Shown here piece after piece: positions 21,201 to 41,574 of a DNA stretch of 64,000 nucleotides. Every line of letters begins with the position of its first letter. Position 1 is the first letter of the stretch. The DNA is from Thermoplasmatota archaeon. Lineage in GTDB: Archaea; Thermoplasmatota; Poseidoniia; Poseidoniales; Thalassarchaeaceae. A model generated the notes under the pieces. That model was not told where the DNA came from. It worked only from the letters and a program-made list of their open reading frames with translations, and made no database searches. A program made the translations under genes and the position numbers. The DNA is taken from the NCBI GenBank assembly GCA_036251765.1, contig JAZANL010000025.1:667-64666 (forward strand), given 5' to 3'.

Positions 21201-21921
21201 CGGGCAGAAGGGAATCATCGGGAGATTGGTCGAGCAAGAGGATATGCCATTTACGGAAGATGGAGTAATCCCCGACCTTCTGATTAACCCACACGCCATT
21301 CCTTCCAGGATGACGGTTGCTCACGTTCTCGAAATGATTGGTGGAAAGGTAGGTTCGATGGAAGGTAGGAGAATTGATGGCACTGCATTCACCGGTGAGA
21401 AGGAGGAATCACTCCGTTCTGGGCTTCTGAGGAATGGCCTCAGGCACACGGGAAGGGAGTCTATGATTAACGGGGAGACCGGAGAGAGCTTCCCGGTCGA
21501 GACTTTCGTTGGCGTTATTTACTATCAGAGGCTCCACCACCTGGTTAGTAGCAAACTACACGCCCGCAGTAGGGGACGGGTACAGATTCTCACAAGGCAG
21601 CCGACCGAGGGGCGTGCCCGACAGGGCGGTCTACGATTCGGTGAGATGGAGAGGGATTGCCTCATTTCACACGGGGCGTCGATGGTCATCAAAGACAGGC
21701 TTCTGGATGAGTCCGATGGCTGGAATCTGATGGTATGCAACACTCCTCGTTGCGGGCATATCGCCTATTATGACTGGAAGAGGAGGACCACCATTTGCCC
21801 GGTTTGTGGCGATAGGTCGGATGTACATTCGGTACAGACATCTTACGCATTCAAGCTACTCCTGGATGAAATGAAGAGTCTTGGAGTTGCGATGAGACTA
21901 GAACTGGAGGATAGAAGATGA
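18229..21921 (+). CDS. rpoB: DNA-directed RNA polymerase subunit B (Rpo2), unsplit
   Basis: ~1230 aa from the Met after RBS 'GGAGGTG'. Conserved RNAP beta blocks ('GEMERDCLISHGA', C-terminal zinc ribbon 'CNTPRCGH...CPVCG'). Confidence 0.95.
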   Translation: MKEIVESYFKQRSLVNHQLASYDDCIPVGDGKESRMEKIVRNIRIGSDEPVEDDEGGLVKLDLLDKEIIVRLKNLRLGRPTIKEANGAEHHATPMECRLRKLTYFSPVYLDFKIFRDDLPPSPGTEMGFQEETSVHIGNLPIMVRSGRCNLNHNHVDENRRLSPDTSVEDSERYKQLLRKSGEDPLDPGGYFIINGTERVLISMEDLAPNRVTVEKNKKYAHETQVAKIFSQKDGVRKPLNVEKRRDGMLMVKIPSAGTTPIPLVLLMRALGVENDREIFASIAGPPEAMKFTVANLNDLRDNEEYGVDTSEEALAWLEKKFAAGQQKEYRESRIQNLLDNELLPHLGSSIDNREKKAIFLGRIARQVLEMAIKDKDPNDKDHYANKRVRLAGDLIEDLFRVSLQQLARDLKYQLERHHNRKRELRISSCLRPDVLTTKIMHALATGNWVGGRSGVSQLLDRTTYLSALSHMRRVTSPLVRSQPHFEARDLHPTQWGRLCPNETPEGQNCGLVKNAAQMIDVSEEVPESDVKALLKEAGVNDNPDGWADGSRIHVNGDIFGLHKRPQKLVSQFKRRRRSGRIRPEVSIRHDLENRDVFINTDRGRMLRPLLIIDHGSLQITKMHLEGLSSGEITFSDLVSGGVVEWVDAEEEEDLLIAPRPFDLPALSPKNNRPINPAKVEWTNLGEHGISHAEVSAEVKMPNGEVKTEKFKVPLNYHQENIDALKRKEKKDNTVLVYTHVEIDPQLIMGVCASLVPYPEHNSTPRVTGGTAMVKQSLGVASANFRLRPDTRAHVMHYPQRSIVGTRAMTSTKFDQRPGGQNFVVAIVSHHGYNMQDAVIMNRASVERALGRSAFIRTYNAENKRFPGGQEERIEVPGTGLDEIKGLKSWDSYSHLERDGLPVPEVELTSQEGGRGILVGKTSPPRFLEESHGAFLQAQERRESSMMVRHGEQGWVDNIFVTESLDSGRLVRITLRTNKIPELGDKFASRHGQKGIIGRLVEQEDMPFTEDGVIPDLLINPHAIPSRMTVAHVLEMIGGKVGSMEGRRIDGTAFTGEKEESLRSGLLRNGLRHTGRESMINGETGESFPVETFVGVIYYQRLHHLVSSKLHARSRGRVQILTRQPTEGRARQGGLRFGEMERDCLISHGASMVIKDRLLDESDGWNLMVCNTPRCGHIAYYDWKRRTTICPVCGDRSDVHSVQTSYAFKLLLDEMKSLGVAMRLELEDRR

Positions 21922-24900
21922 GCGCCCGCGATGCAGCCAAGATACCAAAGAGGATCGACTCTATTAGATTCACATTGATGGATCCCAACGAAATAAGGAA
22001 GATGTCTTCAGTTGAGGTAAAGACTGCGGATACTTACAAGGACGATGGTCACGCATTCAAGCAGGGGCTAATGGATCCCAAAATGGGGGTAATCGATCCC
22101 GGCATAAGGTGTGAGACCTGCGGCAACAAGCATGAGGAGTGCCCCAGTCACTTCGGACACATAGCCCTTGAACTTCCAGTGATGCACATCGGCTTCACGG
22201 GGTTGATCAAGACTTGCCTGAAGACCACCTGCAACACTTGCAGCAAGGCACTACTGCTCGATGCCCCGGAGTCACATCCTACCGACCCTGAGAAGTCTGA
22301 GCAGGACTATTACAGGGACCGTGTAAACGACATCATACTGAAGCATGGAGTGGGTGGCAGGGAGTTCAAGAAGATAATCAAGGACATCGAGAATCTCTGT
22401 GCCGGTGCAAAGAGGGCAATTTGCATGCACTGCGGTGCGGAACAAGGCAAGATAATCTTGGACAAGCCTACGACCTTTAAAGAAAAGAAGGCTGACAAGG
22501 GAGAGCACAAGCTGAATGCCAGAGATATCAGGGAGTGGCTCGAGAAGATCCCCGACGAGCATCTAATTTTCGTTGGAATGGAGAAAGACGTCAGTAGGCC
22601 AGAATGGACGATAATGAAGGTTCTTCCAGTCCCCCCAATTACCGTACGACCGTCAATCACACTAGAGAGTGGTGATAGATCTGAAGACGATCTAACTCAC
22701 AAGTTGGTCGATGTTCTGAGGATTAATCAGCGACTAAGGGAGAATCGTGACTCGGGTGCCCCACAGCTAATAGTGGAAGATCTCTGGGAACTTCTACAAT
22801 ACCACTGCACAACCTACTTCGACAATCAGACTAGTGGAATCCCCCCAGCAAGACATCGATCTGGACGACCCCTCAAGACTCTCTCTCAGAGATTAAAGGG
22901 CAAAGAAGGAAGGTTCAGGAGCAACCTATCAGGAAAGAGGGTGAATTTCTGCGCAAGGACCGTAATCAGCCCGGATCCAAATCTCGGAATTAACGAAGTC
23001 GGCGTGCCTGTAAAGACAGCGAAGGAACTAACGGTCCCTATCAGGGCTACTAGTAGAAACCGCGAACAATTGAGGCAGATGATACTCCGTGGCCCCGATG
23101 TCCATCCTGGTGTGAACTATATCATCAGGGGTGACAGATTCAGAGTGAGGATTACTGATAGAACCAAGTACATCTGGGCCGGCTTCAGATGTTTGAACCC
23201 GGAATGCCATTCTGGAAGCGAGGAAGAACCCTACATGGGCTATAGGCCAGACCTAAATGAGGTGCTACCAGCTCCAAACTTCCTTCCCGGACTAGTCCTA
23301 AAAGAGCAGATGCGGAGAGATCCGATCACCGATGAGCTAGTGCCCGAATGGAACGTTGACCTCGACCGAACTCTCTCTAACCTAAGAGGCGAAGGAGAAG
23401 ATGGAAAGCCATTGGCCGAAGATGACCCAGATGCAGCAATTCACTACAGATGGAAGTGGGAGGTAAATAATCCTGAAGAATATCTTCCAGAGCACCTAGA
23501 GGTGAAGTGTCCACACTGTGGTAGCCCTGAGGTTGAAGACGAGCATGGCAATGTCTACCCGACTGAGACGGAAGACAGACTTAGCACATACGACAGAGAA
23601 GGAAACCCTCGCCCCGGAGTAGTAGTTGAAAGGCATTTGATTGACGGAGACGTGACTATTTTCAATCGTCAACCATCCCTGCACCGGATGTCAATGCTCG
23701 TCCACGAGATTAGAGTAATGGAAGGCAAGACGTTCAGGTTCAATCTAGCCGATTGCACCCCATACAATGCAGATTTCGATGGTGATGAGATGAACCTCCA
23801 CGTTATTCAGAGCGAGGAAGCCAGAGCAGAAGCCAGAATCTTGATGAGGGTCCAAGAGCACATTATCTCCCCGAGGTATGGTGGTAGCGTTATCGGGGGG
23901 ATCCACGACCACATCACTGGTGCATACCTACTTACCCACGGAGAGGCCTTCCTGCCAATGCATGTTGCAATGGATGTGTTAAGCTCAATCGGATGGGAGG
24001 GTGAATTGCCAGAAGCAGTAGAGAGGAACGGACAGACTGGATACCTTGGAAACCAAATCTTCAGCCTATTGGTACGTGGGGGATTCAGCCTGAACTTCAA
24101 GAATAGAGCCGGGGAAGACGTACAAGTATCTCAAGGAGATGTTTCTGGCTCTATCGATAAGAGAGGAATAGGTGCCGAAGACGGCAGACTCCTAGATGCG
24201 GTAGTGCAGACGCATGGGACCGACCTTGGAGCAGACTTCATCAACAAGATGACCAAGATGACCATCGCTATTTGTACAGCAATGGGCTTCACAACGGGGA
24301 TTGATGACGAGGATCTTCCACCCGAGGCAAAGGAGGAGATTGACAGAATTAATGCTGAGGCCAGCACCAACGTGGATGCCGAATTGGAGAAATTCGGAAA
24401 GGACGGTAGGAAGTACGAGGCTAGACCAGGGAGGACTCCCCATGAGACCCTAGAAGAGAACATCCTTACAATTCTGGACGCAGCCAAGGCCGAGACTGGA
24501 AACGTCGCCAAGGCACTACTAGGCGATGACAACTCAGCGGTACTGATGGCCACTTCCGGTGCTAGAGGGTCTATGGACAACCTAGCGATGATGGCCGGAT
24601 CAATCGGACAACCGAAAGTTAGGGGCAAGAGGCTTGAGAGAGGATACCAAGACCGCGTCCTTTCCCACTTCCCCAGGAAGGTAAAGGGTGCCAAGGAGAA
24701 GGGCTTCGTTTCCTCTTCATTCAAGAGGGGCCTAGAACCCACTGAATTCTTCATGCTATCAGTATCAGGAAGGGAGTCCTTGGTTGATACAGCAGTTAGG
24801 ACGAGCAAATCTGGATACATGCAACGGCGTCTGATTAATGCAATGGACGACCTAAAGGTTTCAAACGACCCGATGGCTTCGGTTAGAAATACCGCTAACC

Positions 24901-25013
24901 GAATAATCCAATTCGAATACGGAGAAGACGGCACAGATCCTGCTAGGAGCAGGAAAGGAAGCCCATTCGACGTGGACCAAGTTCTGAATGACGCATTGGG
25001 AGGTGCTAACTGA
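21918..25013 (+). CDS. rpoA1: DNA-directed RNA polymerase subunit A' (Rpo1N), carrying a ~130-aa insertion
   Basis: 1031 aa. N-terminal zinc cluster '[17 protein letters not shown]'. '[10 protein letters not shown]' catalytic Asp triad. Start overlaps the rpoB stop (ATGA). Confidence 0.95.
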
Positions 25014-26929: not shown

Positions 26930-27889
26930 TTGGGTTTTCTTCAAAGTCACACCCTTCGCCCTAGATCTATGGAAGAGGCGTTGCGGGATCTTCTCAGAAT
27001 AAAAGCTGTTAACCTCCGCACCCAGAAAGTGGGCTCTGTAGCGCCCGGCTTCACCTTCCTGGGCGTCGCCAATGCAATCCCAGATTTGGAAATACACTCG
27101 AATGAGGTTTTTATTTGGCATGCCAAAGCCGGAATATTGCCAATCACTGAGAGTGAGATAATCAGGTTTGGAATGGATGCACCCAATGGCCTCAACATAA
27201 TCCTGAGTGAAAGGCCCGTTCATTCGGAATGCCACTCGGTAGCTACTTTCAATTTCAGAATTCTTGAACCCGAGGAAGTTTCCATGTGGGTCGGAAAGGC
27301 CGTTCTATCAGGAGATTTGATTGCAACCGCTAAGGATGAAGTAGAGGACCAAATGGAACGATTAGAACATGAAAAAAGAACCCAGAAACTGTTAGTTCTG
27401 AACCCAGTCATTGAGATCAAGGAATGGTCTTCACAACGTGGAATGGATGGTTTCTCTTCAACCCCCATTCTCCTAAGGGCACGACTGTGGTCGGTATCGG
27501 GGGAATTGAAAGGGCCCGATGGTGAAAGAGAATCCGGTGAATGGGTGATTCTTGAGGATCCGTGGTCAAAAACCGTGTCTCTAATGAATGATATTCACAA
27601 TCTCCGCCAGGCACCAATTCTGAGGACTATTGAACCACAGAATTCCAATTGGCTTACTCCTGATAGGATAAATCAAGAATTGTCCAAAGCCATCGAGGAA
27701 AGGAGGAGAGGGGGCTCAGGAGAGATCAGTGATTCAGGAACCGTCCGTAGCATGCTTCTACAGAAATGGTCTTTGGACTCCGAAAGAGCCAGAATTGCCG
27801 ATTGCAAGATAATGATTCCTGGATGGCTAATACACTTTGAATCCGAAAAGATTCTGCACGGACGTAACGGTCGCCTATACGATTACTAA
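26930..27889 (+). CDS. Hypothetical protein (319 aa) occupying the position where nusA/rps12/rps7 normally follow rpl30e
   Basis: Long ORF with ordinary composition. No recognisable motif. Start uncertain (internal Met at ~26969 is possible). Confidence 0.4.
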   Translation: MGFLQSHTLRPRSMEEALRDLLRIKAVNLRTQKVGSVAPGFTFLGVANAIPDLEIHSNEVFIWHAKAGILPITESEIIRFGMDAPNGLNIILSERPVHSECHSVATFNFRILEPEEVSMWVGKAVLSGDLIATAKDEVEDQMERLEHEKRTQKLLVLNPVIEIKEWSSQRGMDGFSSTPILLRARLWSVSGELKGPDGERESGEWVILEDPWSKTVSLMNDIHNLRQAPILRTIEPQNSNWLTPDRINQELSKAIEERRRGGSGEISDSGTVRSMLLQKWSLDSERARIADCKIMIPGWLIHFESEKILHGRNGRLYDY

Positions 27890-28749
27890 TTCCTCTGTAG
27901 CAGCATCATATCTTCATCCGAGAGGGTTTGACCCTCCATAAGCCTAGACATTAAGTCAGTAACTTCAACCCTCTCCGAATCCTGCTCTTTCTTTGTTCCT
28001 GATAACTTCAGAATATCCTGCATAGAATGAATACACCGGAGGGAGATGATGTATTTGTTGTGTAAATCATCAGCTTCACCCTTAGTTGCAGTTAGTCCTA
28101 GATGTTCTGAATTTGCCATCCCCCTGAGCCTATCAACTTCATTTGAAAGCTCCATCATCAGGGAGTGGGCCTCCTCTGACTTCTCGGAAGCGTCGGTTAC
28201 AGCATCATGTGCTTTCTGCTGCCTCTTCTCAGCTTGCTTCACTTCCTTCAGAACAGAAGAGCTACTCGCTTCCTCTTCCTTTTTGAGCAATTTAAATTCA
28301 GTCTGCAACCTCTTCATTGTCGCATAGAAGTCCCTCTCCTTCTTTGGGCTAATTTGACCTGTCTGATGCCGCCACTCCAGCTTATTCATCTGCTCGCGAA
28401 TTTTTCGGGATCCTGGGCCCTTCCTCTTTTTGCCTTTGTCTTGATCATTATTTTCAACCGAGCTCCTCAATTTAGCCCTAACTTCCTTTAATTCATTTGT
28501 CTTCTCGAGCCTAATCTTCCTAAGTTCTGCGACCCTACTATTTGCCTCATTCCGCAATGTCTTCTGCTTCTGCACTTCGGTGATCAATTGCTTCACTTGA
28601 CTATTTATCTCATTCCTCTTGTCTAATTGACCTCTGACTTTCACGTTGAGTTGGTCACGTCTTGTTTTGAAATCTGTCAGCTTATCACTAACCAACTGAG
28701 TTTTCGTTTCGAAAACTTGACTAAAATTCGACTGATTGAGTTCCAACAA
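27886..28749 (-). CDS. Coiled-coil protein, paralogue 3 of a tandem triplet
   Basis: 287 aa, K/E/R/Q-rich heptad-like sequence. Overlaps the upstream paralogue's 3' region. Confidence 0.5.
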   Translation of the reverse strand: MLELNQSNFSQVFETKTQLVSDKLTDFKTRRDQLNVKVRGQLDKRNEINSQVKQLITEVQKQKTLRNEANSRVAELRKIRLEKTNELKEVRAKLRSSVENNDQDKGKKRKGPGSRKIREQMNKLEWRHQTGQISPKKERDFYATMKRLQTEFKLLKKEEEASSSSVLKEVKQAEKRQQKAHDAVTDASEKSEEAHSLMMELSNEVDRLRGMANSEHLGLTATKGEADDLHNKYIISLRCIHSMQDILKLSGTKKEQDSERVEVTDLMSRLMEGQTLSDEDMMLLQRN

Positions 28750-28808
28750 CTACCCTCAGAGATGCCCAATTGAAGCCTCCATTTAAGGAATACCGAGTTT
28801 TTACACCC

Positions 28809-29774
28809 CTATTCCCTTCTAGTGGCAACTCTACCTTGCCTACTCCCTCTTCTGGATACTCCAATCTTTCTGCTCTTTTTCCTAGGCCTGGACACCCTTT
28901 TCGAATCATCCGAACCTTCCTTTTTAGTTCCTGAAATTGTTGAGAGGCCCCCAGATTCTAGCAATGCCCCCAACTCATCTGTGCTAAGGGAGCCGCCCTT
29001 GGCCGCAATTCCACGAATGTCTTCTATGCTGGAGAAGTCTCCACGGCCAGAAGAGATTCTCGAATACCTCTCTACCCTTTTCAATTCCTTTCTCTCAACC
29101 TTAACTGATCTTTTCTTTGCCTCAATATTATTGTCGATTGATGAAATCCTCTTGCTGATTCTCCGTATCTCTTTCCTGCTGATTTTCTCGTCTTCAATTT
29201 CTACATTATCTTTGAGATCAGACACTACCTTGTCCGAGACTTCTTTGTTCTGATCCAACTTCGTAGAAATCTTCCTCATTTCACTAACTCTGTTGATATA
29301 ATCGGAATGAGCCTTTTCTGCCTCTTTCTTTTTCTTAATTGATGCCTGAATCTCGAAGAATCTGCTGAATGCAGTTAGCTCCGGATTTAGCATTGGTACA
29401 GCAGTCAGATCATTATCTATGCTGGTAAGGGATTGGAATGTATCACTCAACCATTCTTCTAGAATCTTTGACGGAGGCGGAACACACTTGTTGATTGAGT
29501 CCCGCTTCTCTCGTTGTTTTTGAGCATCCTTTCTTGATGCGTGAAATTCTCCTAGCAACTTCTTTCTCCCTGAATCAGAATGCTCGAAGCCTACTATTGC
29601 AGACCTCAAAGCCTTGACTATGTGCACTTGCTCCTTCCTCTCAGATTGAAGATCCCTAATCTCCCCTTCAATAGAGCGTAACATAGCCTTCTTTTCTTTG
29701 ACCATTCTACTGACTCCTTCTGCATCCAAAACCTTGAGGTCTTCCCAATTGTTGGTTTCAGGGCTGTCGCTCAT
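28809..29774 (-). CDS. Coiled-coil protein, paralogue 2, with basic C-terminal tail
   Basis: 321 aa, coiled-coil composition. C-terminal 'SRPRKKSRKIGVSRRGSRQGRVATRRE'. Start overlaps paralogue 1's stop by 4 nt. Confidence 0.5.
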   Translation of the reverse strand: MSDSPETNNWEDLKVLDAEGVSRMVKEKKAMLRSIEGEIRDLQSERKEQVHIVKALRSAIVGFEHSDSGRKKLLGEFHASRKDAQKQREKRDSINKCVPPPSKILEEWLSDTFQSLTSIDNDLTAVPMLNPELTAFSRFFEIQASIKKKKEAEKAHSDYINRVSEMRKISTKLDQNKEVSDKVVSDLKDNVEIEDEKISRKEIRRISKRISSIDNNIEAKKRSVKVERKELKRVERYSRISSGRGDFSSIEDIRGIAAKGGSLSTDELGALLESGGLSTISGTKKEGSDDSKRVSRPRKKSRKIGVSRRGSRQGRVATRRE

Positions 29775-30595
29775 TCTTCCTCACCAGCCGTTTTTTCCAC
29801 CCTTGCTTTGCTCTTCTTTGCGAAGGAGGAAAGCCCCCCTTCCTCGACATTCCTTCTAGCCCTTAGCAGGTCTCGGAAACCAGGACCGATTTGACCAAAT
29901 CCTTCTTTGAGCCTCTTTTCCCAGTGTGCAATCGCCTTGTCACTCTGAGAAAGAAGCTCCCTTGCTCTGTCTAATTGACTCCTCACTTCCTTTAATTCGC
30001 CCGATGCCTCTGACATCTTCTTGTACATTGGTTGGGCCTTAGAAACCGCTTCGATCATCTTGGCGTGTTCCTTATCCGCCTTTTTGAACAATGCAGACAT
30101 TTTCCGGCTCTTTTCTAGGTAGTTCGACATCTCGGGATTGGAATCCTTTCTATCTCTGACCCACTTGTCGTTCTCTGAAATAAGTGCCCTCCTTTTCTCC
30201 AGAAGCTTCCTCTCAGATTTGTGATCTAGGGCCGATGTCTGAATCTTATCCTCAATCTCCTCAATCTGCTCCAGAAGCTTCTGCTTCTTCCACTTGGGGT
30301 CTAGGCTAATCATTCCTCCTGAGCTAATCAGCTTCTCCCTGATTTCTTTGACCTCGGGAATCAATCCCCCAGCTTCAGTCTGAAACCGATCTCTCTCCTC
30401 CTTGAATGCTGCAACCTTGCTATTTGCATCATCGAACGCGTTTTTCATTCGCTCAACTTTTGGACTCAGTGAGTCTTCTTCAGCCTCTAGATTTCGTATC
30501 ACACCGGGAAGACTGTCTTTCAGCATAACCCTCCTTCTCAGGAGTTTCTCAGCAAGCTCACCAGGCTCAACCTCCATCAGTTCTGCAGTGTCCAT
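29771..30595 (-). CDS. Coiled-coil protein, paralogue 1 (first gene of the triplet)
   Basis: 274 aa, K/E-rich. 'ERKLLEKRRALISENDKW' segment resembles 'ENSLIKKLRSLISRRDEL' in the 34497 ORF. Confidence 0.5.
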   Translation of the reverse strand: MDTAELMEVEPGELAEKLLRRRVMLKDSLPGVIRNLEAEEDSLSPKVERMKNAFDDANSKVAAFKEERDRFQTEAGGLIPEVKEIREKLISSGGMISLDPKWKKQKLLEQIEEIEDKIQTSALDHKSERKLLEKRRALISENDKWVRDRKDSNPEMSNYLEKSRKMSALFKKADKEHAKMIEAVSKAQPMYKKMSEASGELKEVRSQLDRARELLSQSDKAIAHWEKRLKEGFGQIGPGFRDLLRARRNVEEGGLSSFAKKSKARVEKTAGEEE

Positions 30596-30649
30596 TTCGA
30601 TTCCGAGAAATCCCTCCTTTTTTTAGCAATACTGGACAATTTTCTGGGT

Positions 30650-32227
30650 TTGATTCATACGATGGCCATTCAAGCCGACTCCATGCGGGTCTTGCTAGGC
30701 AATACTATTGCCATGTCCATTGCAATAATATTGCTATCCAGCATGGCATCGCATTCATTCTCGACAAACCAACTAGAATTTAGCAGAATAGGCGCCAAGT
30801 ATTCCGACGAGCCAACTAACTCCACCAATTTCACATCATCGGGAGGATCTGGATTGGCAGTATCCGGTGAACCAGGTTACGTTGGTGACACTCTTACTGC
30901 CTCAATGATGGTGACAAATTCAGGAAACGTAAGCGCATCAGTCTCACTCCTTGTTGCTACAGTTTCTGGTGATGAGTCATTCGAGGGTGCCCACTTCCCT
31001 ATTTCTCCCGGATCTACCCGAGAGGTTTCCACTCCATTCAAATTGACCTCATCTGGTACTAATCATTTTGATTGGCGGGTATCTGTAGTTGAAGATCCTG
31101 ATAATTCGCAATTACAAGGAAATTTTTCTGTCGAGGTACTGCCCAGCCAGACACTAAACGTATCTATTGACTCAATAGAATGGACAAATTCTGACGGCTT
31201 GAATTTCGATGCCTCCATTTTCCTATCCAATGGAAGATCACGGGGAATCATTCTCGAGGCCTCTTCCGGACAAAATGGCGGCTACAAACTATTGCAGAGT
31301 TTACAAATCGACTCGAATCCAGGTAGAAGGACAATCTCTTTCGATTTGGGACATCCTTCAGCAGACGAGGTAATATTGGAGGCTATTCCAATCGCTTGGC
31401 AGCCTTCATCAGATTCCACTAATTTAACACAACTTAGCGTCACAGAGCCATTGGTAAACAAAGCCTCACTATCCGTAGATGCCACCTTCGACCCAGAAAT
31501 GCCCACCCCCGGAAGTAGAGTCATGGTCTCGATATCATTAGAAAATACGGGCAACTATCAAGCACAATCCGGCCATGTAAGGGTGATATCTTCATCCGAC
31601 CAGCAAATCCTCGCTGAGACAGCGGTTCAGTCAGTAATGCCTGGATCAATCTTCACAACCGAGGTGTCTTTGTCAGATTGGCCAAATAGCGATAGCGTCG
31701 GTTTAGAGCTGCAGTGGCTAACAAGCGGTACAAAATCTACGGACTACCTAACAATCGAGACCGAGAAGAGTCAGGAAGGATTGAATCTCCCCTTTGACTT
31801 AGTTGCAGCCGCCTATGGACTTCTAGCCGGAATACTAACAATTCTTGTGGGTACATTTGTCTGGCGCGCAGTTTCTACTCGAACTCCTTCTACTACCGAT
31901 TATAATCTCCGTGAAACAAAGGAATCTGCAAAATCACAGTCAAAACTGGAGAAGACGGAGATTCAATGTTCGTATTGTGACCAGAGACTGATGGTTCCTC
32001 ACAATCATGTGGGCGGAGTCCGCTGTCCGGCTTGCTCGATGGAATTCGTTGTCGGCCAAGTCGACCAGCCATCACATCCCGTAGTCCGCTCATCAGAAGA
32101 CACCCTTAATTGCCCAGAATGTCAACAGGCCTTGAGGGTGAAAATGGAGAATAGGCCAGTAATGTCTAGATGCCCGGTCTGCAAGACTCAGTTCATGGCC
32201 GAGGCCGAGGAGGATCAAGATGTCTGA
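30650..32227 (+). CDS. Membrane protein with a large extracellular domain and a cytoplasmic tandem zinc ribbon
   Basis: 525 aa. N-terminal TM/signal and ~380-aa S/T-rich exodomain. TM 'LVAAAYGLLAGILTILVGTFVW'. C-terminal 'CSYCDQ...CPACS' and 'CPECQQ...CPVCK'. Confidence 0.55.
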   Translation: MIHTMAIQADSMRVLLGNTIAMSIAIILLSSMASHSFSTNQLEFSRIGAKYSDEPTNSTNFTSSGGSGLAVSGEPGYVGDTLTASMMVTNSGNVSASVSLLVATVSGDESFEGAHFPISPGSTREVSTPFKLTSSGTNHFDWRVSVVEDPDNSQLQGNFSVEVLPSQTLNVSIDSIEWTNSDGLNFDASIFLSNGRSRGIILEASSGQNGGYKLLQSLQIDSNPGRRTISFDLGHPSADEVILEAIPIAWQPSSDSTNLTQLSVTEPLVNKASLSVDATFDPEMPTPGSRVMVSISLENTGNYQAQSGHVRVISSSDQQILAETAVQSVMPGSIFTTEVSLSDWPNSDSVGLELQWLTSGTKSTDYLTIETEKSQEGLNLPFDLVAAAYGLLAGILTILVGTFVWRAVSTRTPSTTDYNLRETKESAKSQSKLEKTEIQCSYCDQRLMVPHNHVGGVRCPACSMEFVVGQVDQPSHPVVRSSEDTLNCPECQQALRVKMENRPVMSRCPVCKTQFMAEAEEDQDV

Positions 32228-32879
32228 ATTCAGCGAAATCGAGGAGATGTATCTGAAGACCATATTCGAGGTTCACTCCGAGATGCCCGGGGAGATCGTA
32301 AAGACCACACAGATTGCTGATTTGATGGGCGTTTCTGCCGCCTCTGTTACAGAAATGGTCCAACGCCTAACCCAACGTGGAATGATCACTCACATACCAT
32401 ATCGCGGCTGCCGACTGACAACTGAGGGTTTTCAGTTAGCTGCCAGAGTTAAAAGACGAGAAGGCCTACTAGAGGTTCTTCTGAAAGACGTGATAGGTTT
32501 CAAGGGGGATGTGAAAGCTGTTGCATGCAAAATGGAGCATGCCGTAGGGATAGATCTGGAGGAAACTCTAGACCGCCTTCTTGGTTATCCGGAAACAACT
32601 GTCGGTGGAGGGAAGATCCCTAGTATCGAGCGTGATTTTGAAACATTGGGCGTTGGAACACTATTGCCATTGGGGCGACTACCTGAGGGATCATCAGCGG
32701 AAGTCGAGATGATTGTTGCAAACGATGTTGAAACCATAACTATCAATGATTGCGGTATCAGTATTGGAGCCCCGATCTCTGTTTCTGAGGGGAAGATAAC
32801 TACTGGTGGCATGGAAATCGGCTTATCTGATGGCATTTCAATGAAGATACTGGCCAGAATCACTTCAATGGGGGAGTAA
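32220..32879 (+). CDS. DtxR/MntR-family metal-dependent transcriptional regulator with C-terminal FeoA (SH3-like) domain
   Basis: N-terminal 'EMYLKTIFEV...' wHTH. Dimerisation/metal-site region 'RREGLLEVLL'. C-terminal FeoA-like domain. Start overlaps the upstream gene by 8 nt. Confidence 0.75.
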   Translation: MSEFSEIEEMYLKTIFEVHSEMPGEIVKTTQIADLMGVSAASVTEMVQRLTQRGMITHIPYRGCRLTTEGFQLAARVKRREGLLEVLLKDVIGFKGDVKAVACKMEHAVGIDLEETLDRLLGYPETTVGGGKIPSIERDFETLGVGTLLPLGRLPEGSSAEVEMIVANDVETITINDCGISIGAPISVSEGKITTGGMEIGLSDGISMKILARITSMGE

Positions 32880-32929: not shown

Positions 32930-34462
32930 TTGGAATCAATGGTAGAAACCCTGCAAATAGAGACTCCTTCGGCCCCTGAAATCAAAGGAATGGTCAAGGT
33001 CGAAGAAAGGGCCGAAACAGTCAACAAAAAGACACAATTGAAATCTAGAGAGACGATTCTTACAGGTATCGACGATATTCTGATCAGCCGCGGGGCTCGT
33101 TTGATATTATTCCTCCCCATCGCAGTAGTCGTCCTTTTCGGACTAGCCCAGTCATATCGTGGGTCCGTCCCTAGTTGGTGGGAAGGTGGAGTTCAGGAAC
33201 TATTCTTCGACCTCTCATTCTCAAATTCAGTCTACTTACTTGCTCTGGCCATCATGGTCACAGACCTAGTTCTACTGTTCGTTCTTCATTACCTGCTGTG
33301 GGTAACAAAGCGCATTTTCCAAATCGAAACCGATGAAATAGTCTCCACGGGAATTACCTTCCGAAGCTCGCATGGTTATAGTGAGATGAAAGCGGTAATT
33401 GATGGGGCATCTAACCAACTCAATCTTACTACTACCATGATGTTTCTTTCAACCGTTCTACTTGGCTTAGCATTGATTTTCTCATCAGATGATTCCCAAG
33501 GAATCCCCGTTCTGATTGCATTGTCTACCGGTGCTCTACTATCCGGACACAGTGTTTACATGGTTTCCAACCGACCAAGATTCAACACAGTCGAGCCATG
33601 GGGGCTGTTAGACGCATTCACCCCCCCAATGCATCCCGCATTGCTGAACAAACCATTCACAGATGTGATCAGATCACACGTCGACCCGCTGCTAGCCGTG
33701 CGCTTCTCAAAGTACGTCACTTCGTTTAGTGATAATCTCCAGAGCGGCGTAAGACTTTCTGAGTTGCAGGAATATCTTCTGCAGGTACTAGATATGTTCC
33801 GCTCTGGGTTGATAGAAGAGGATGAATTCCATGCAGCTCTTGGGGAATTAGTAGACACAAGAACCATTGATCAAATCATCAATCATCCAGAGCTTGGTGA
33901 AGAGACATTGGATAGGTTGCTTATGCATGCAAGGGAAAGATGCGCCCCCTTCTTCCGCCTTAACGACAGGATGAGGATGCACTTGTCCTCACACATGAAT
34001 GAGCAGATATGGTTTGATGTGGATATGGAGAACCTTACTCTCGGCCAGGCAAACCTATTCGCATTCGTCCTCAACCAGACAGATGAAACACAGGATCTTA
34101 TCCTCAGGGTACAGACTCCCGACTTCCGTCCAAACGAGTGCGTATATCGACTCAAAGCCGAACCCCACGCCGATGACAAATTATCTGGAAAGACCACTTA
34201 CGAGAGGGTTTCCTCCTCTGTGTCATCGTCGAGGATTGTTTGGCAGACCCTCATCCCATCCTCTATGGGCGATGCTACTGTAACAGTTAGGCTAGAGGAC
34301 TCCTCAGGAAACCTAATCTCAGGCAAGGTTCTAACTTCACAAGTAAGATCAGACCTCTTTACTCGTCTAAGGATGACTACTGGTGCAGTATTCATGTTCG
34401 GTGCCGCACTCGCCATCATTTCACCGATCCTACCCTTTGTAGCAAAGTTACTTGGCCTTTAG
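32930..34462 (+). CDS. Large membrane protein (N-terminal TM bundle, long soluble C-domain, C-terminal TM)
   Basis: 510 aa, hydrophobic helices at both ends. No diagnostic motif. Confidence 0.5.
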   Translation: MESMVETLQIETPSAPEIKGMVKVEERAETVNKKTQLKSRETILTGIDDILISRGARLILFLPIAVVVLFGLAQSYRGSVPSWWEGGVQELFFDLSFSNSVYLLALAIMVTDLVLLFVLHYLLWVTKRIFQIETDEIVSTGITFRSSHGYSEMKAVIDGASNQLNLTTTMMFLSTVLLGLALIFSSDDSQGIPVLIALSTGALLSGHSVYMVSNRPRFNTVEPWGLLDAFTPPMHPALLNKPFTDVIRSHVDPLLAVRFSKYVTSFSDNLQSGVRLSELQEYLLQVLDMFRSGLIEEDEFHAALGELVDTRTIDQIINHPELGEETLDRLLMHARERCAPFFRLNDRMRMHLSSHMNEQIWFDVDMENLTLGQANLFAFVLNQTDETQDLILRVQTPDFRPNECVYRLKAEPHADDKLSGKTTYERVSSSVSSSRIVWQTLIPSSMGDATVTVRLEDSSGNLISGKVLTSQVRSDLFTRLRMTTGAVFMFGAALAIISPILPFVAKLLGL

Positions 34463-34496: not shown

Positions 34497-35483
34497 ATGG
34501 TTAGCGACGATGGGGACTCGGATGACCTCCGAACTAGGTTGCACGCCATGGAGTCCAAGCTAACTAGAGTTCGTGGTCAGCGTGACTCCCACAATGACTC
34601 CGCAAAGAGGGCAGCAGATCAGAGAAACTCTGCTCAGAATAAAAGAAATGAGGTACAGGAATCAATCACATCCAGGATGGACGAACAGAAGAAGGTACGT
34701 GCACAGGCAAAGATCCACCAAGCAAGCCGCGATGAGATACAGCATAGCATCAGGGAGATCATCTCGCGAAAGAAGGGCAAGAAGGACCAAGGCCCGGGGA
34801 AGTCCGTAGTGATTCAACTATCGGAAACAGTTGGCGAGATAGAGAGGATAGAGGATCGGATAATGACCGACGGAGGCCTTTCTCTGGAGAAGGAAAACTC
34901 CCTCATCAAGAAACTTCGCTCATTAATTTCTAGAAGGGACGAACTAATACCTCATGTAGAGCAACAGCGCATAGTCTCTATCGATTTGAGTGATATGGAC
35001 GAATCTATTCAGAGATTGAGGGCTGAGGCAGATAACGAACACAAGTTAATGCTCGAGCAAAATAGCCTGGCAGATGAGATTTGGAATGAAATCAAACCCC
35101 TTTTCGAGGAAAGGGACTTTCTCAGAGGCGAAGGTGATAGGCTGCATGCCCTTTTCTTGGAGGAAAGGGGCAAGGCCGACGAGGCGCATCAGGGAGTGGT
35201 CGAACTCCTTTCCAAGGTGAATGAGATCCGGAGTGAGATACGCTCTCAGCACGAGGAGAGAGAAAGGATGGTAAACGACCATAACAAATCTGTAAGACAG
35301 GCTCTAAGAGGGCCCGATCAGAACGAAGAACTCGCAGAATCTCTATCTGACAAGCTCCTAGGAGGTCAATCAATCACCTTCGGAGGAATCGTTGCCACCG
35401 ATGCCAACGTTACTCAGGATGAAAAACCGAGGCCAAAGAGGAAATCGAGGAAGCTCGGTACTTCTCGTGGCAGGAAGAGCTAG
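34497..35483 (+). CDS. Coiled-coil protein, fourth paralogue, with basic C-terminal tail
   Basis: 328 aa, K/E/R/Q-rich. C-terminal 'KPRPKRKSRKLGTSRGRKS'. Confidence 0.5.
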   Translation: MVSDDGDSDDLRTRLHAMESKLTRVRGQRDSHNDSAKRAADQRNSAQNKRNEVQESITSRMDEQKKVRAQAKIHQASRDEIQHSIREIISRKKGKKDQGPGKSVVIQLSETVGEIERIEDRIMTDGGLSLEKENSLIKKLRSLISRRDELIPHVEQQRIVSIDLSDMDESIQRLRAEADNEHKLMLEQNSLADEIWNEIKPLFEERDFLRGEGDRLHALFLEERGKADEAHQGVVELLSKVNEIRSEIRSQHEERERMVNDHNKSVRQALRGPDQNEELAESLSDKLLGGQSITFGGIVATDANVTQDEKPRPKRKSRKLGTSRGRKS

Positions 35484-37406: not shown

Positions 37407-38303
37407 ATGGCCAAAGGAGCATCAGCGAGAGCCGCGGCTCGTAGGCAGAAGGACAAGTGGAAGGCCAAGAGATGGTACTCAATACGAGCCCCTAGGAATC
37501 CATGGTCGTTCAAGGTAATAGGCGAGACAATTGCCGAGGAAGAGGACATGCTAGTAGGCAGGCCATTCGAGATTATGCAGAATGAGCTCGACGGCGACTT
37601 CACCAAGATGCATGTAAAGATCAAATTCCGAATCAAGGAAGTTGTCGGAAACGACGCCATCACTGAGTTCGTCGGCCATGATGTCATGAAGGACTTCGTC
37701 AGGAGGCAGATAAGGAGGGACAGGGGGAAAATTGACGATACCATTGATGTCGTTACCGAAGATGGCTACTTTGTCAGAATCAAGCCCTTCATCGTAACCA
37801 GGTCAAGCGTCAAGGCTAGTCAGAAGAATGAGTCCAGGAGCGTAACCAGGAACGAGGTAGTCAAGTTCTGCGCCCAATCTACGTGGATCAATGTACAGAA
37901 GGCACTCATGGACGGATCGTTGGAGGAGACCGTCTCCAAGGCTATATCCAAGATTCAACCTGTTCGTGCGGTCTTCTTCAGGCGCAGCCAACTTATTCAG
38001 GACGGTGTTGTGGTAGACGACGGGCCAACTCTGGAGGAGATCAAGGCCCAGGAGAAGGAGGCAAGGGAGCAAGAAGAGATGACTCCAGACGAAGATGATG
38101 AGGTCGCGGCTGAGCAACCGAATGAGGATGGTCCAGACGAGGATCACGAGGCTGAATCTGAAGACGAAGGACAAGACGTTGAGAGTCCCGCTGATGTCGA
38201 CTACGAGTCGATGACCGTTGCACAGCTGAAGGAACTACTGAAGAAAGACGGCAAGCCAGTGTCAGGTAAGAAGGCCGACCTCATATCTAGATTATCGGAG
38301 TGA
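37407..38303 (+). CDS. rps3ae: Ribosomal protein S3Ae (eS1) with acidic linker and C-terminal SAP domain
   Basis: N-terminal 'MAKGASARAAARRQKDKWKAKRWYSIRAP' is the typical S3Ae start. C-terminal 'MTVAQLKELLKKDGKPVSGKKADLISRL' matches the SAP motif. Confidence 0.85.
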   Translation: MAKGASARAAARRQKDKWKAKRWYSIRAPRNPWSFKVIGETIAEEEDMLVGRPFEIMQNELDGDFTKMHVKIKFRIKEVVGNDAITEFVGHDVMKDFVRRQIRRDRGKIDDTIDVVTEDGYFVRIKPFIVTRSSVKASQKNESRSVTRNEVVKFCAQSTWINVQKALMDGSLEETVSKAISKIQPVRAVFFRRSQLIQDGVVVDDGPTLEEIKAQEKEAREQEEMTPDEDDEVAAEQPNEDGPDEDHEAESEDEGQDVESPADVDYESMTVAQLKELLKKDGKPVSGKKADLISRLSE

Positions 38304-40394: not shown

Positions 40395-40946
40395 TCAACT
40401 ATTGAAGAAATCATTTTCGATTTCAGTAATTTCCTCTCTGGAATAGGCATTACCGTATGCTTCCAGAGGTTTCCTGTTCAGATCCATGAACTGTTCCCCG
40501 AATTCGAATGGCTGTAGAATTCTAGTAGCCTGTTCCTGATAGCCTAGTATGGCCAGAGTAGCTGCCAATGCCTCCACAGAAGACAACCTACCTACCCTTC
40601 CCCAGGAAACGGGGTTTGCAGCTAGCAGTGCTGGCAATTTCCTCCCTACTAGTTTTGTTTTTCCAGATATTTCCTCCAATGACTCATCGATCCTCTTCCA
40701 TGAGCAGTCTAGAACTACAATAGAAGCACCTATCGAGATGAGGGTGCGATCTTCGGGTGCGAGTGTTGTTGGTGATTTCGGATCTAGGAGATACCCCCTC
40801 CTAGGTGCTCTTGATATCGATTCGTGGAATTCTACTAGACCATTGGCATGCATCTTCCTAGCAGTACACTTCCGTGGATCATCCTGATCGAGATGAATCA
40901 CATGGAGGGGGACCTCTTCCACGAAACTATCTCCTCGATCTAGCAC
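40395..40946 (-). CDS. tsr3: 16S rRNA aminocarboxypropyltransferase Tsr3 (DUF367)
   Basis: 'DQDDPRKCTARKM' matches the conserved DPKKCT block of Tsr3. Confidence 0.75.
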   Translation of the reverse strand: MLDRGDSFVEEVPLHVIHLDQDDPRKCTARKMHANGLVEFHESISRAPRRGYLLDPKSPTTLAPEDRTLISIGASIVVLDCSWKRIDESLEEISGKTKLVGRKLPALLAANPVSWGRVGRLSSVEALAATLAILGYQEQATRILQPFEFGEQFMDLNRKPLEAYGNAYSREEITEIENDFFNS

Positions 40947-41574
40947 CAGACCGGGAGACTCCTATCCTTCTCCCTTTCTTCTTCTTACTCTTCTTCTTGG
41001 GTTCGGACTCGGGTGAATTATTCGCATCCGAGATGGTCATCTGCCTATCATTATCCGAAGCTACGATTGTATGGGCATGTGAAACTGACTCCACGAATAG
41101 CTTGATGTCTAACGCCTTCGCGAATTTGTTCAGGAGGGAGTCAGTCGGCCTAATGCCATTCTCGGTCTTCTGAATGGTGGCAATCTTTTCGTTCATCCGT
41201 TTGGCAAGCTCTTCCTGTGAGAGCCCTCTATGCTTCCTAGCATTCCTAATTCGCGAATGGAAGTCATTTGCTAGTTCAACCTCATCCTTAGTCATGATAT
41301 CTACTCCAGAGATCCCTTTCCCTGAGACTGAGCTTTGATTCTCAGTTGGGGGCAGATGTGCCGGAGTCCTCACCGCTTCGACAATTAGTCCCATGGATTG
41401 GATGCACCTATTGCAGCACTCGAGCATCGAATTATTTCCAACGGGTTTCGAAATCTTCGCCCTCTTTGTGCTAATTCCCTCAGCCCCACAGAGCTCGCAT
41501 GCACCCATGCATTGCCGTCTCGATTGAACATCATAGTCCTTCGCAGGAGTCATAAGTATCCGTTTAGTGTGCAC
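40927..41574 (-). CDS. mbf1: Archaeal multiprotein bridging factor 1 homologue (zinc ribbon + HTH_XRE) with basic C-terminal tail
   Basis: 'CELCG...CCNRC' zinc ribbon. 'LSQEELAKRMNEKIATIQKTENG' HTH. C-terminal 'KKKSKKKKGRRIGVSRSGARSRR'. The true start is probably the internal Met (~41508 or 41553). Confidence 0.65.
   Translation of the reverse strand: MHTKRILMTPAKDYDVQSRRQCMGACELCGAEGISTKRAKISKPVGNNSMLECCNRCIQSMGLIVEAVRTPAHLPPTENQSSVSGKGISGVDIMTKDEVELANDFHSRIRNARKHRGLSQEELAKRMNEKIATIQKTENGIRPTDSLLNKFAKALDIKLFVESVSHAHTIVASDNDRQMTISDANNSPESEPKKKSKKKKGRRIGVSRSGARSRR

Follow-up and report, generated by a model that had tools for sequence, protein, structure and literature searches.

Four genes in a stretch of 64,000 nucleotides (nt) of archaeal DNA, referred to throughout as the window, encode coiled-coil proteins that, on the strength of profile comparisons, are well supported as ancient paralogues of a single pan-archaeal family catalogued as DUF7121 and COG1340. 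Three of the genes (A, B and C) form a tandem trio, and the fourth paralogue (D) belongs to the same divergent locus, which also holds two membrane-protein genes (M1 and M2). The quadruplication probably took place in Marine Group II (MGII) and before the diversification of the order Poseidoniales. Our preferred reading, held tentatively and at somewhat less than an even chance, is that the four products form a hetero-oligomeric scaffold of rods in the neighbourhood of translation and the ribosome, linked to MBF1, with the C-terminal tails of B and D docking on the partner of the MBF1 tail. The family itself is already known as a catalogued group of unknown function; as far as the literature found allows, the four-paralogue divergent locus, a subfamily missed by Pfam and the MBF1-type tails are new.

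Four paralogues in one family

The tandem trio comprises gene A (30595..29771, 274 amino acids, aa), gene B (29774..28809, 321 aa) and gene C (28749..27886, 287 aa, with a TTG start), all on the minus strand, while gene D (34497..35483, 328 aa) lies on the plus strand. The list of open reading frames (ORFs) agrees with the original prediction of three co-directional genes of these sizes with a 4-nt overlap between the first two. This overlap of the A stop and B start codons (ATGA, 29771..29774, minus strand) recurs in almost every one of the 47 related loci, with the end of A at the start of B plus 3, and the sequence arrangement suggests translational coupling of A and B. The composition is rich in K, E, R and S, with K, E and R together making up 30-35% of residues, and the AlphaFold2 (AF2) models are almost wholly helical, in agreement with the charged coiled-coil character proposed at the outset.

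All four are genuine genes under purifying selection. The ratio of nonsynonymous to synonymous substitution rates (Ka/Ks) against orthologues is 0.02-0.12 across the four genes (A 0.085-0.105, C 0.02-0.05, D 0.03), and the four-gene layout is kept across Poseidoniales genomes; the proteins are therefore not compositional artefacts lacking conservation, a possibility that the original prediction had left standing, and orthologues of A occur in all Poseidoniales loci. Marine metagenomes contain hundreds of homologues that range from near-identical to diverged, and the close homologues of A-D carry the labels Candidatus Thalassarchaeaceae or Poseidoniales. The rpoB, rpoA', rpoA'' and L30e genes at ~18-27 kb of the window are archaeal. 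Long plus-strand ORFs run antisense to A-C (at 28046-28491, for example 28046-28327, and at 28822-29253; 93-143 aa; Ser/Leu/Phe-rich). As genes they were rejected, being shadow frames of the K/E-rich coding strand, and related contigs annotate the A-D frames only.

Membership of the family was assessed with the Pfam model DUF7121 (PF23435), which has a gathering threshold of 29 bits. Using hmmscan, A (42.5 bits, E 7e-11), C (57.5 bits) and D (33.9 bits) pass this threshold, which bears out the proposal that the gene ~4 kb from the trio is a further paralogue; B has no Pfam match. Profiles built from 41-48 Poseidoniales sequences for each orthologue group were then aligned with hhalign, giving probabilities of 95% for A-C, 93% for A-D and 95.6% for C-D over 249 columns, all in register. 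The Poseidoniales-only profile of B aligns poorly with A, C and D (6-30%); against the 52-member family profile it reaches 91.5% (E 8.5e-7) over 231 collinear columns, an alignment that takes in the C-terminal motif (B, GGSLSTDELGALLESGG; family, GEKLSTEDLMxLQxxG). By these profile alignments B is probably a highly divergent DUF7121 family member, graded as probable rather than certain because the assignment comes from hhalign and B has no hmmscan match.

Pairwise comparison adds one clearly significant case, the BLASTP alignment of A110-215 with D114-220 (30% identity over ~110 aa, E 1.5e-5). The C-D alignment has 24% identity over 248 aa (E 6e-4), and that of B and D covers the tail region only; paralogy therefore rests on the profiles, pairwise similarity being otherwise weak. 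The recurring segments that were first noticed in the trio and the distant gene correspond to A128-145 and D133-150, lie inside the A-D BLASTP alignment and are the family's hairpin-tip motif.

The wider family is large and of uniform size. Among representatives clustered at 50% identity, 313 relatives of C were recovered, most of them 285-300 aa long and matching over their full length. Homologues carry the IMG name 'uncharacterized coiled-coil DUF342 family protein', which we take to be the COG1340 product name. In the literature, COG1340 figures as a group of archaeal coiled-coil proteins that is highly conserved and lacks a known function (PMC1322226). Additionally, arCOG01159 (representative TK2157, 'coiled-coil protein') is present in 492/524 archaeal genomes and heads the list of top-priority uncharacterised archaeal proteins of Makarova, Wolf and Koonin (PMC6393860). 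DUF7121 matches COG1340 and is probably the same group as arCOG01159/TK2157, since both share the description of a near-universal archaeal coiled-coil protein, TK2157 has a size of 36.7 kDa and the homologues bear the COG1340-type IMG name. Should this identification hold, the MGII quartet would belong to the first entry on that list, a group projected to the archaeal ancestor. Profile searches thus place the proteins in a named family, DUF7121/COG1340, and not in a well-characterised one, the family's function being unknown. A literature search found no paper on DUF7121, PF23435 or the IMG product name, and no solved structure of a relative was found, profile searches of the sequences in the Protein Data Bank (PDB) included. 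The IMG names attached to homologues of B ('tetrahydromethanopterin S-methyltransferase subunit G' and 'nucleic acid-binding Zn-ribbon protein') were set aside as they look like spurious coiled-coil matches; B has neither a Cys-rich ribbon nor a family match.

Hairpin architecture and conserved polar layers

With 52 aligned homologues as input, AF2 models C at a pLDDT of 91.5, with helices at residues 6-107, 114-129, 135-271 and 278-286. According to this model, the unit of C, taken as that of the family, is an intramolecular antiparallel coiled-coil hairpin with ~100 residues per arm and a length of roughly 15 nm. The B model (pLDDT 70; helices 18-97, 101-121, 131-190 and 200-241) has the same order of helices.

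A signature of polar layers, derived in the present analysis from the columns of the 52-sequence family alignment, accompanies this predicted fold. On helix 1 of C, four layers of the form R-(D/N)-x-x-N occupy residues 31-35, 45-49, 66-70 and 80-84 (28495..28659, minus strand), with R31, R66 and N70 conserved in 52/52 sequences, R45 in 51/52, N35 in 47/52 and N49 in 45/52. On helix 3, four layers of the form A-(D/Q/E)-x-x-H occupy residues 177-181, 191-195, 212-216 and 226-230 (28060..28221, minus strand); here H195 and H230 are invariant (52/52), H181 is found in 45/52 and H216 in 30/52, with Q in 20. The spacing between layers is 14/21/14 on both helices, and the position sums are constant (35+230 = 49+216 = 70+195 = 84+181 = 265). 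The constant sum and the matched spacing indicate that the layers pair in antiparallel register, as the hairpin predicts. By our own heptad assignment, Arg would fall at 'a' and Asn or His at 'e', forming one polar stripe along the rod, and the register of the hairpin would be locked by the four RDxxN / A(D/Q)xxH layers.

Two further elements are conserved across the family. The distal tip contains L124, E125, Q129, T130 and E138 (motif LE..QT..S...E..L in the family alignment), and the C-terminus carries G273-x-x-L-S-x-E-D-L, in the family form G-x-K-L-S-T-E-D-L-x-x-L, as a short helix. In C this motif reads EGQTLSDEDMMLLQRN. In B the equivalent is a helix-loop-helix at residues 250-276, IEDIRGIAAKGGSLSTDELGALLESGG (28947..29027, minus strand), which aligns with GEKLSTEDLMxLQxxG and is modelled as helices 250-258 and 265-274.

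The paralogues have retained different parts of this signature. In C, three of the four layers are intact, with Thr84 where the family usually has Asn (N in 26/52) and Asn at 85 instead. For the others the comparison is approximate, given an alignment of divergent paralogues: D retains ~3/4 of the His layers and the tip, A retains the tip and one or two layers, and B retains a single complete RDxxN layer, the Arg residues of helix 1 and the C-terminal motif, which is degenerate in A and D. The tip of B has been remodelled into a nearly invariant block at residues 99-143, PPPSKILEEWL..LT.IDNDLT.VPMLNPEL..F.RFFEIQ (29346..29480, minus strand), at the modelled junction of helix 101-121, a loop and helix 131-190.

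The regular His, Asp and Asn layers could also be read as metal-binding sites, for example in a dimer of hairpins that stores or senses metal, which would explain the DtxR/MntR-type gene inside the MGII locus. Invariant His195 and His230 with an adjacent Asp or Gln, the four regular layers, that gene and a weak hemerythrin-domain match for A (E 0.026) are consistent with this idea. However, each layer offers one His per chain, paired with Arg or Asn rather than with Glu or His; the hemerythrin match is far below its cut-off, the DtxR gene is not a neighbour in other lineages, and A, B and D have lost most layers. Buried polar layers are a common register-fixing device in coiled coils. A metal-binding role is thus very unlikely.

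A Foldseek search of the C model against the PDB returned generic antiparallel arms, namely SMC arm fragments (5xg2 and 5nnv, query TM-score 0.61-0.65), Smc5/6 arms, chemoreceptors and SH3BP5, and the B model returned the same neighbours; for neither model was there a PDB match at E<=1e-3. The SMC family was considered and rejected, since the NCBIfam SMC_prok matches are restricted to arm regions and reach 10-25 bits where the cut-offs are 567-729, and the proteins are too short for a head or hinge. Similarly, membership of a defence system was dismissed: with PADLOC, A and B match only coiled-coil arms (JetC, DndD and LmuB) at 14-18 bits, and the other proteins queried (C, D, M1, M2 and the product of the 319-aa ORF that follows rpl30e) have no match at all.

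The original prediction had likened the trio to divergent PspA/Vipp1, ESCRT-III/CdvB or intermediate-filament-like proteins, which would polymerise on membranes. The size of 270-330 aa, the all-alpha K/E/R-rich composition and the presence of multiple paralogues, as in ESCRT-III sets, are in line with such a likeness. The comparisons with PspA/Vipp1 and ESCRT-III were nevertheless all negative. Neither PspA_IM30 (PF04012) nor Snf7 matched any of A-D at E<=1 in Pfam; profile searches of all PDB sequences returned no PspA, Vipp1 or ESCRT-III chain at E<=10; no ESCRT-III or PspA structure was among the top 50 Foldseek matches of the B and C models; and the family profile aligned with E. coli PspA (sequence entered by hand) at an hhalign probability of 0.6%. 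No Vps4/CdvC or CdvA gene or domain is found among the neighbours of the locus, and the ~100-residue arms are much longer than the alpha1-alpha2 hairpin of ESCRT-III and PspA. For filament proteins, a vimentin fragment matched at E 0.035 in the PDB profile search, which is not significant, and AF2 predicts an intramolecular antiparallel hairpin as opposed to the parallel dimeric rod of that class. A hidden relationship to any of these proteins is consequently exceedingly improbable. Of the broader suggestion of a structural, cytoskeletal or membrane-remodelling system, a generic scaffold role may still apply, and membrane remodelling finds no support beyond the two neighbouring membrane-protein genes.

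Basic tails and a proposed link to MBF1 and translation

Beyond the hairpin, B and D continue into C-terminal tails that are predicted to be disordered. The basic tail of B, RPRKKSRKIGVSRRGSRQGRVATRRE (28812..28889, minus strand), carries a net charge of +13 over the last 30 aa and is modelled with pLDDT < 50; its core, [KR][KR][IL]GVSRRG.R.G, is conserved in all B orthologues. The basic tail of D, KPRPKRKSRKLGTSRGRKS (35424..35480, plus strand), has the core KR[KR]xR[KR][LV]G[TSA][SF]R in most D orthologues, one sub-clade having RKPKSFRGR in its place. The tail of A is basic and then acidic (GGxSSFAKK...EEE), and C has no tail. All of the 71 full-length canonical family representatives (71/71) end no more than 9 residues past the C-terminal motif, where B and D run on, so the tails are an MGII addition.

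The same tail is found on an unrelated protein of the window. An MBF1-type gene (40927..41508, minus strand, 193 aa) encodes an N-terminal CxxC...CxxC Zn ribbon followed by a Cro/C1 helix-turn-helix (HTH; HTH_3 48.7 bits) and ends in KKKSKKKKGRRIGVSRSGARSRR (nt 40930-40998). The motif common to B, D and MBF1 is [KR][KR][IL]G[VT]SR..G, and a six-frame scan of the window with [KR][KR][ILFV]G[VTS]SR.{0,2}G gave 3 matches against 0.015 expected, all of them C-terminal and belonging to B, D and the MBF1-type gene. The recurring basic tail noted earlier is accordingly conserved on B and D and extends to the C-terminus of MBF1. The 193-aa MBF1 product is matched exactly on three contigs, and a metagenome scan returned one orthologue, a Tara sequence with 72% identity that retains the tail as GRKIGVSRSGARSRR. 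In the window, MBF1 has a lysine-rich stretch and then GRRIGVSRSGARSRR, instead of the usual archaeal MBF1 ending, which is TLGDF in the mbf1 loci of another lineage. A conserved C-terminal motif [TS]-[LIVMF]-G-[DENI] has been reported for archaeal MBF1 (PMC3062615); at the corresponding positions B has K-I-G-V, D has K-L-G-T and the window MBF1 has R-I-G-V, and the three MGII tails match each other far better than they match this motif.

The mbf1 gene lies ~5.4 kb from D. One of its neighbours, the downstream ORF 40395-40946, is read as Tsr3-type from the Fer4_RLI and Ribo_biogen_C domains of its equivalent on an identical contig, and the other, a divergent AAA ATPase at ~41.4 kb, is read as PAN-type from the Prot_ATP_ID_OB_C domain found on an identical contig.

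An association with mbf1 was also seen outside MGII. On contigs from several samples, another archaeal lineage has the order DUF1614, DUF7121, MBF1 (Zn ribbon and HTH_3), Sua5, MetAP and creatininase, with AlaRS, class I LysRS, Sec61-beta and deoxyhypusine synthase near the DUF7121-mbf1 cluster. DUF7121 thus lies immediately upstream of mbf1, and both are on one strand. The DUF7121 proteins of this lineage share 60-78% identity among themselves and 23-30% with C. A further DUF7121 member, 36-39% identical to the mbf1-adjacent ones, adjoins SRP54 on one contig. In work of Blombach et al. from 2014, archaeal MBF1 was reportedly found to bind 30S subunits. The archaeal 30S dimerisation factor aRDF was considered as a possible identity and rejected, as it is a globular alpha-helical protein and not a coiled coil (PMC11724365).

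TK2157 is among ~26 proteins identified in isolated Thermococcus kodakarensis chromosomes, a preparation in which RNA polymerase, EF1-alpha, V-ATPase and ribosomal proteins were also present (PMC7325993), and a weak signal for it was obtained in a GAN/GINS pull-down (PMC3152336). A transposon insertion in TK2157 caused partial thermosensitivity, for which the authors discussed the downstream gene arcS (PMC6393311). The chromosome fraction and the pull-down, combined with SMC arm fragments as the best fold neighbours and the weak SMC-arm matches in NCBIfam and PADLOC, would fit an architectural protein of the nucleoid or chromatin, in which head-less rods resembling SMC arms bridge or coat DNA via the basic tails and the Arg/Asn/His stripe. 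We regard this as improbable: the SMC-type matches are confined to the arms at scores far below their cut-offs, and A-D lack a head, a hinge and a Walker motif; ribosomal and transcription proteins dominate the chromosome fraction, canonical members have no basic tail, and the observed gene contexts are related to translation and not to replication or chromatin.

The divergent locus and its possible role

The seven genes form one divergent locus, in which A, B and C are read in one direction and M1, DtxR, M2 and D in the other, so that D is part of the same block as A-C. The two arms diverge from an A/T-rich spacer of 54 bp between A and M1 (30596..30649), with a T7/A7 run ~25 nt upstream of the ATG of A, and this spacer is presumed to be a bidirectional promoter. 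M1 (30650..32227, plus strand, 525 aa) has a signal or anchor segment, an extracellular CARDB Ig-like region (Pfam CARDB, 33.6 bits), a transmembrane segment and, on the cytoplasmic side, a tail bearing two Zn ribbons (DZR 20.1 bits, below cut-off); its hydrophobic segments are at residues 14-32 and 378-396. Overlapping M1 by 8 nt is the gene for a metal-dependent repressor of the DtxR/MntR type with a FeoA-like C-terminus (32220..32879, plus strand; Fe_dep_repress 56.5 bits, Fe_dep_repr_C 56 bits). M2 (32930..34462, plus strand, 510 aa) is a multi-pass membrane protein with four hydrophobic segments and no Pfam match. A likeness of M1 to a soluble multi-Zn-ribbon neighbour on another related contig was discarded, the best E of 0.031 not being significant.

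A genome survey queried with the B alignment recovered 44 Poseidoniales species genomes, in which B is 44-84% identical. Essentially all of them preserve the entire A-D block and the flanking L30e-U319 and PdxS genes; M1, DtxR and M2 hold conserved positions between A and D, and independent contigs show the same order. U319 is the conserved ORF of 309-319 aa directly after rpl30e (26930-27889, plus strand), present in the Poseidoniales loci, whose 3' end is convergent with that of C and overlaps it by 4 nt. It has no Pfam, NCBIfam-style or PADLOC match and takes the position in which archaeal RNA polymerase operons usually carry nusA. A complete A-B-C...D locus also occurs on the 10-kb contig NZEN01000001.1, which is filed in a metagenome-assembled genome titled 'Opitutia bacterium' and is almost certainly a mis-binned Poseidoniales contig.

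Two other genes of the window were noted in passing. The gene at 37407-38303 (plus strand) encodes ribosomal protein S3Ae (eS1) extended by a long acidic linker and, at the C-terminus, a SAP domain, MTVAQLKELLKKDGKPVSGKKADLISRL; on orthologous contigs Pfam lists Ribosomal_S3Ae and SAP for the eS1 gene, and the fusion looks unusual for a ribosomal protein. RpoA' (21918-25013, plus strand, 1031 aa) includes a Cys-rich acidic stretch, which looks like a lineage-specific insertion relative to other archaeal A' subunits.

The composition of the locus raises the alternative of a membrane-proximal scaffold: as a cytoplasmic lattice or adaptor, the rods would dock on M2 and on the Zn ribbons of M1, their tails would bind anionic archaeal lipids, and their role would be cytoskeleton-like or envelope-organising. 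D ends the M1-DtxR-M2-D string, A-B-C diverge from the same short spacer and the block is conserved in Poseidoniales. In the other lineage, DUF7121 is preceded on its own strand by a gene of DUF1614, presumably an integral-membrane family. The SRP54 gene adjoining DUF7121 on one contig and the V-ATPase that co-purified in the TK2157 fraction add to this side. However, the tails are rich in G, S and R and have no hydrophobic face, unlike amphipathic membrane-targeting helices, and the same tail is carried by MBF1, a soluble HTH protein. Additionally, the canonical family is tail-less and near-universal, and M1 and M2 share no known domains with other lineages. Synteny is just as strong for the housekeeping flanks, and the association with M1 and M2 may therefore be coincidental. 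A membrane-proximal scaffold is therefore considered unlikely, though less so than a nucleoid protein.

In the preferred reading, a single MGII gene would have been quadrupled, with C staying canonical and A, B and D each keeping part of the ancestral layers. B would have rebuilt its tip into the near-invariant block, and B and D would have gained their disordered basic tails. The four rods would assemble into one hetero-oligomeric scaffold, a proposal in keeping with the different subsets of layers retained, the conserved A/B overlap, the apparent coupling and the single divergent locus. This scaffold would work in the housekeeping neighbourhood of translation and the ribosome and not in membrane remodelling, and the tails of B and D would anchor it to the polyanionic partner that the MBF1 tail also uses, most likely ribosomal RNA or the small subunit. 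The translation and MBF1 link is suggested by the shared tail, the mbf1 adjacency, the translation-rich contexts and the co-sedimentation of TK2157 with ribosome-rich material.

Several observations weigh against this scheme. Adjacency to mbf1 was seen in one lineage only. The immediate MGII neighbours, M1 and M2, are membrane proteins, which favours the membrane-linked alternative, and conserved order alone is no proof of functional linkage because the housekeeping flanks are just as syntenic. The chromosome-fraction result for TK2157 is co-sedimentation only, V-ATPase being listed as well (PMC7325993). Finally, the published archaeal MBF1 motif is reported only as conserved and as not interfering with yeast Mbf1 function (PMC3062615), and the MGII tails match it only at the [LIVMF]-G core, with differing flanks.

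A more far-reaching version, which we consider speculative and unlikely, would make the whole DUF7121/COG1340 family the ribosomal partner of MBF1, as a rod lying at the small subunit or holding MBF1 via the C-terminal motif. In MGII the partner would have become a four-subunit hetero-oligomer with copies of the MBF1 tail on B and D that allow docking at the MBF1 site, and ribosomes might thereby be coupled to the membrane proteins of the locus. If a partnership of the family with MBF1 at the ribosome were true, it would provide a function for a family inferred in the last archaeal common ancestor. MGII are among the most abundant archaea of the surface ocean and are uncultured, so leads derived from sequence are the sole way in. 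The present analysis offers three handles on this orphan family: a structural signature of four register-locking polar layers and a conserved tip; the expansion of one gene into four fixed, partly complementary paralogues, two of them with apparent translational coupling; and a C-terminal tail that, beyond B and D, only MBF1 carries, supplemented by the position of DUF7121 beside mbf1 in another lineage, which points to a partner that is testable in culturable archaea.

Compared with known systems, A-D are closest to their own family. As in other DUF7121/COG1340 members, the proteins are all-alpha, archaeal and of ~290 aa, and C carries the family layers, tip and C-terminal motif (Asn84 excepted); MGII differs in having four fixed paralogues in one locus, a B protein outside the Pfam model with a rebuilt tip, and basic tails of 20-45 aa on B and D. 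The arms of SMC, Rad50 and MukB share the long intramolecular antiparallel two-helix coiled coil and are the best Foldseek neighbours, whereas A-D have no ATPase head or hinge, only ~100 residues per arm and Foldseek E values above 1e-3. PspA/Vipp1 and ESCRT-III (Snf7/CdvB) are likewise small, charged, all-helical hairpin proteins that often occur as sets of paralogues, but A-D have a far longer arm, lack a MIM-like C-terminus and are not accompanied by a partner gene for Vps4 or CdvA. With archaeal MBF1 the likeness is restricted to the basic tail in which this organism's MBF1, B and D all end; A-D have no HTH or Zn ribbon and no homology to it outside the tail. A purely functional analogy is the eukaryotic ribosome receptor p180/RRBP1, which likewise pairs a long coiled coil with a strongly basic region that binds ribosomes; there is no homology, and p180 is anchored in the membrane and has its basic region as a tandem repeat at the N-terminus.

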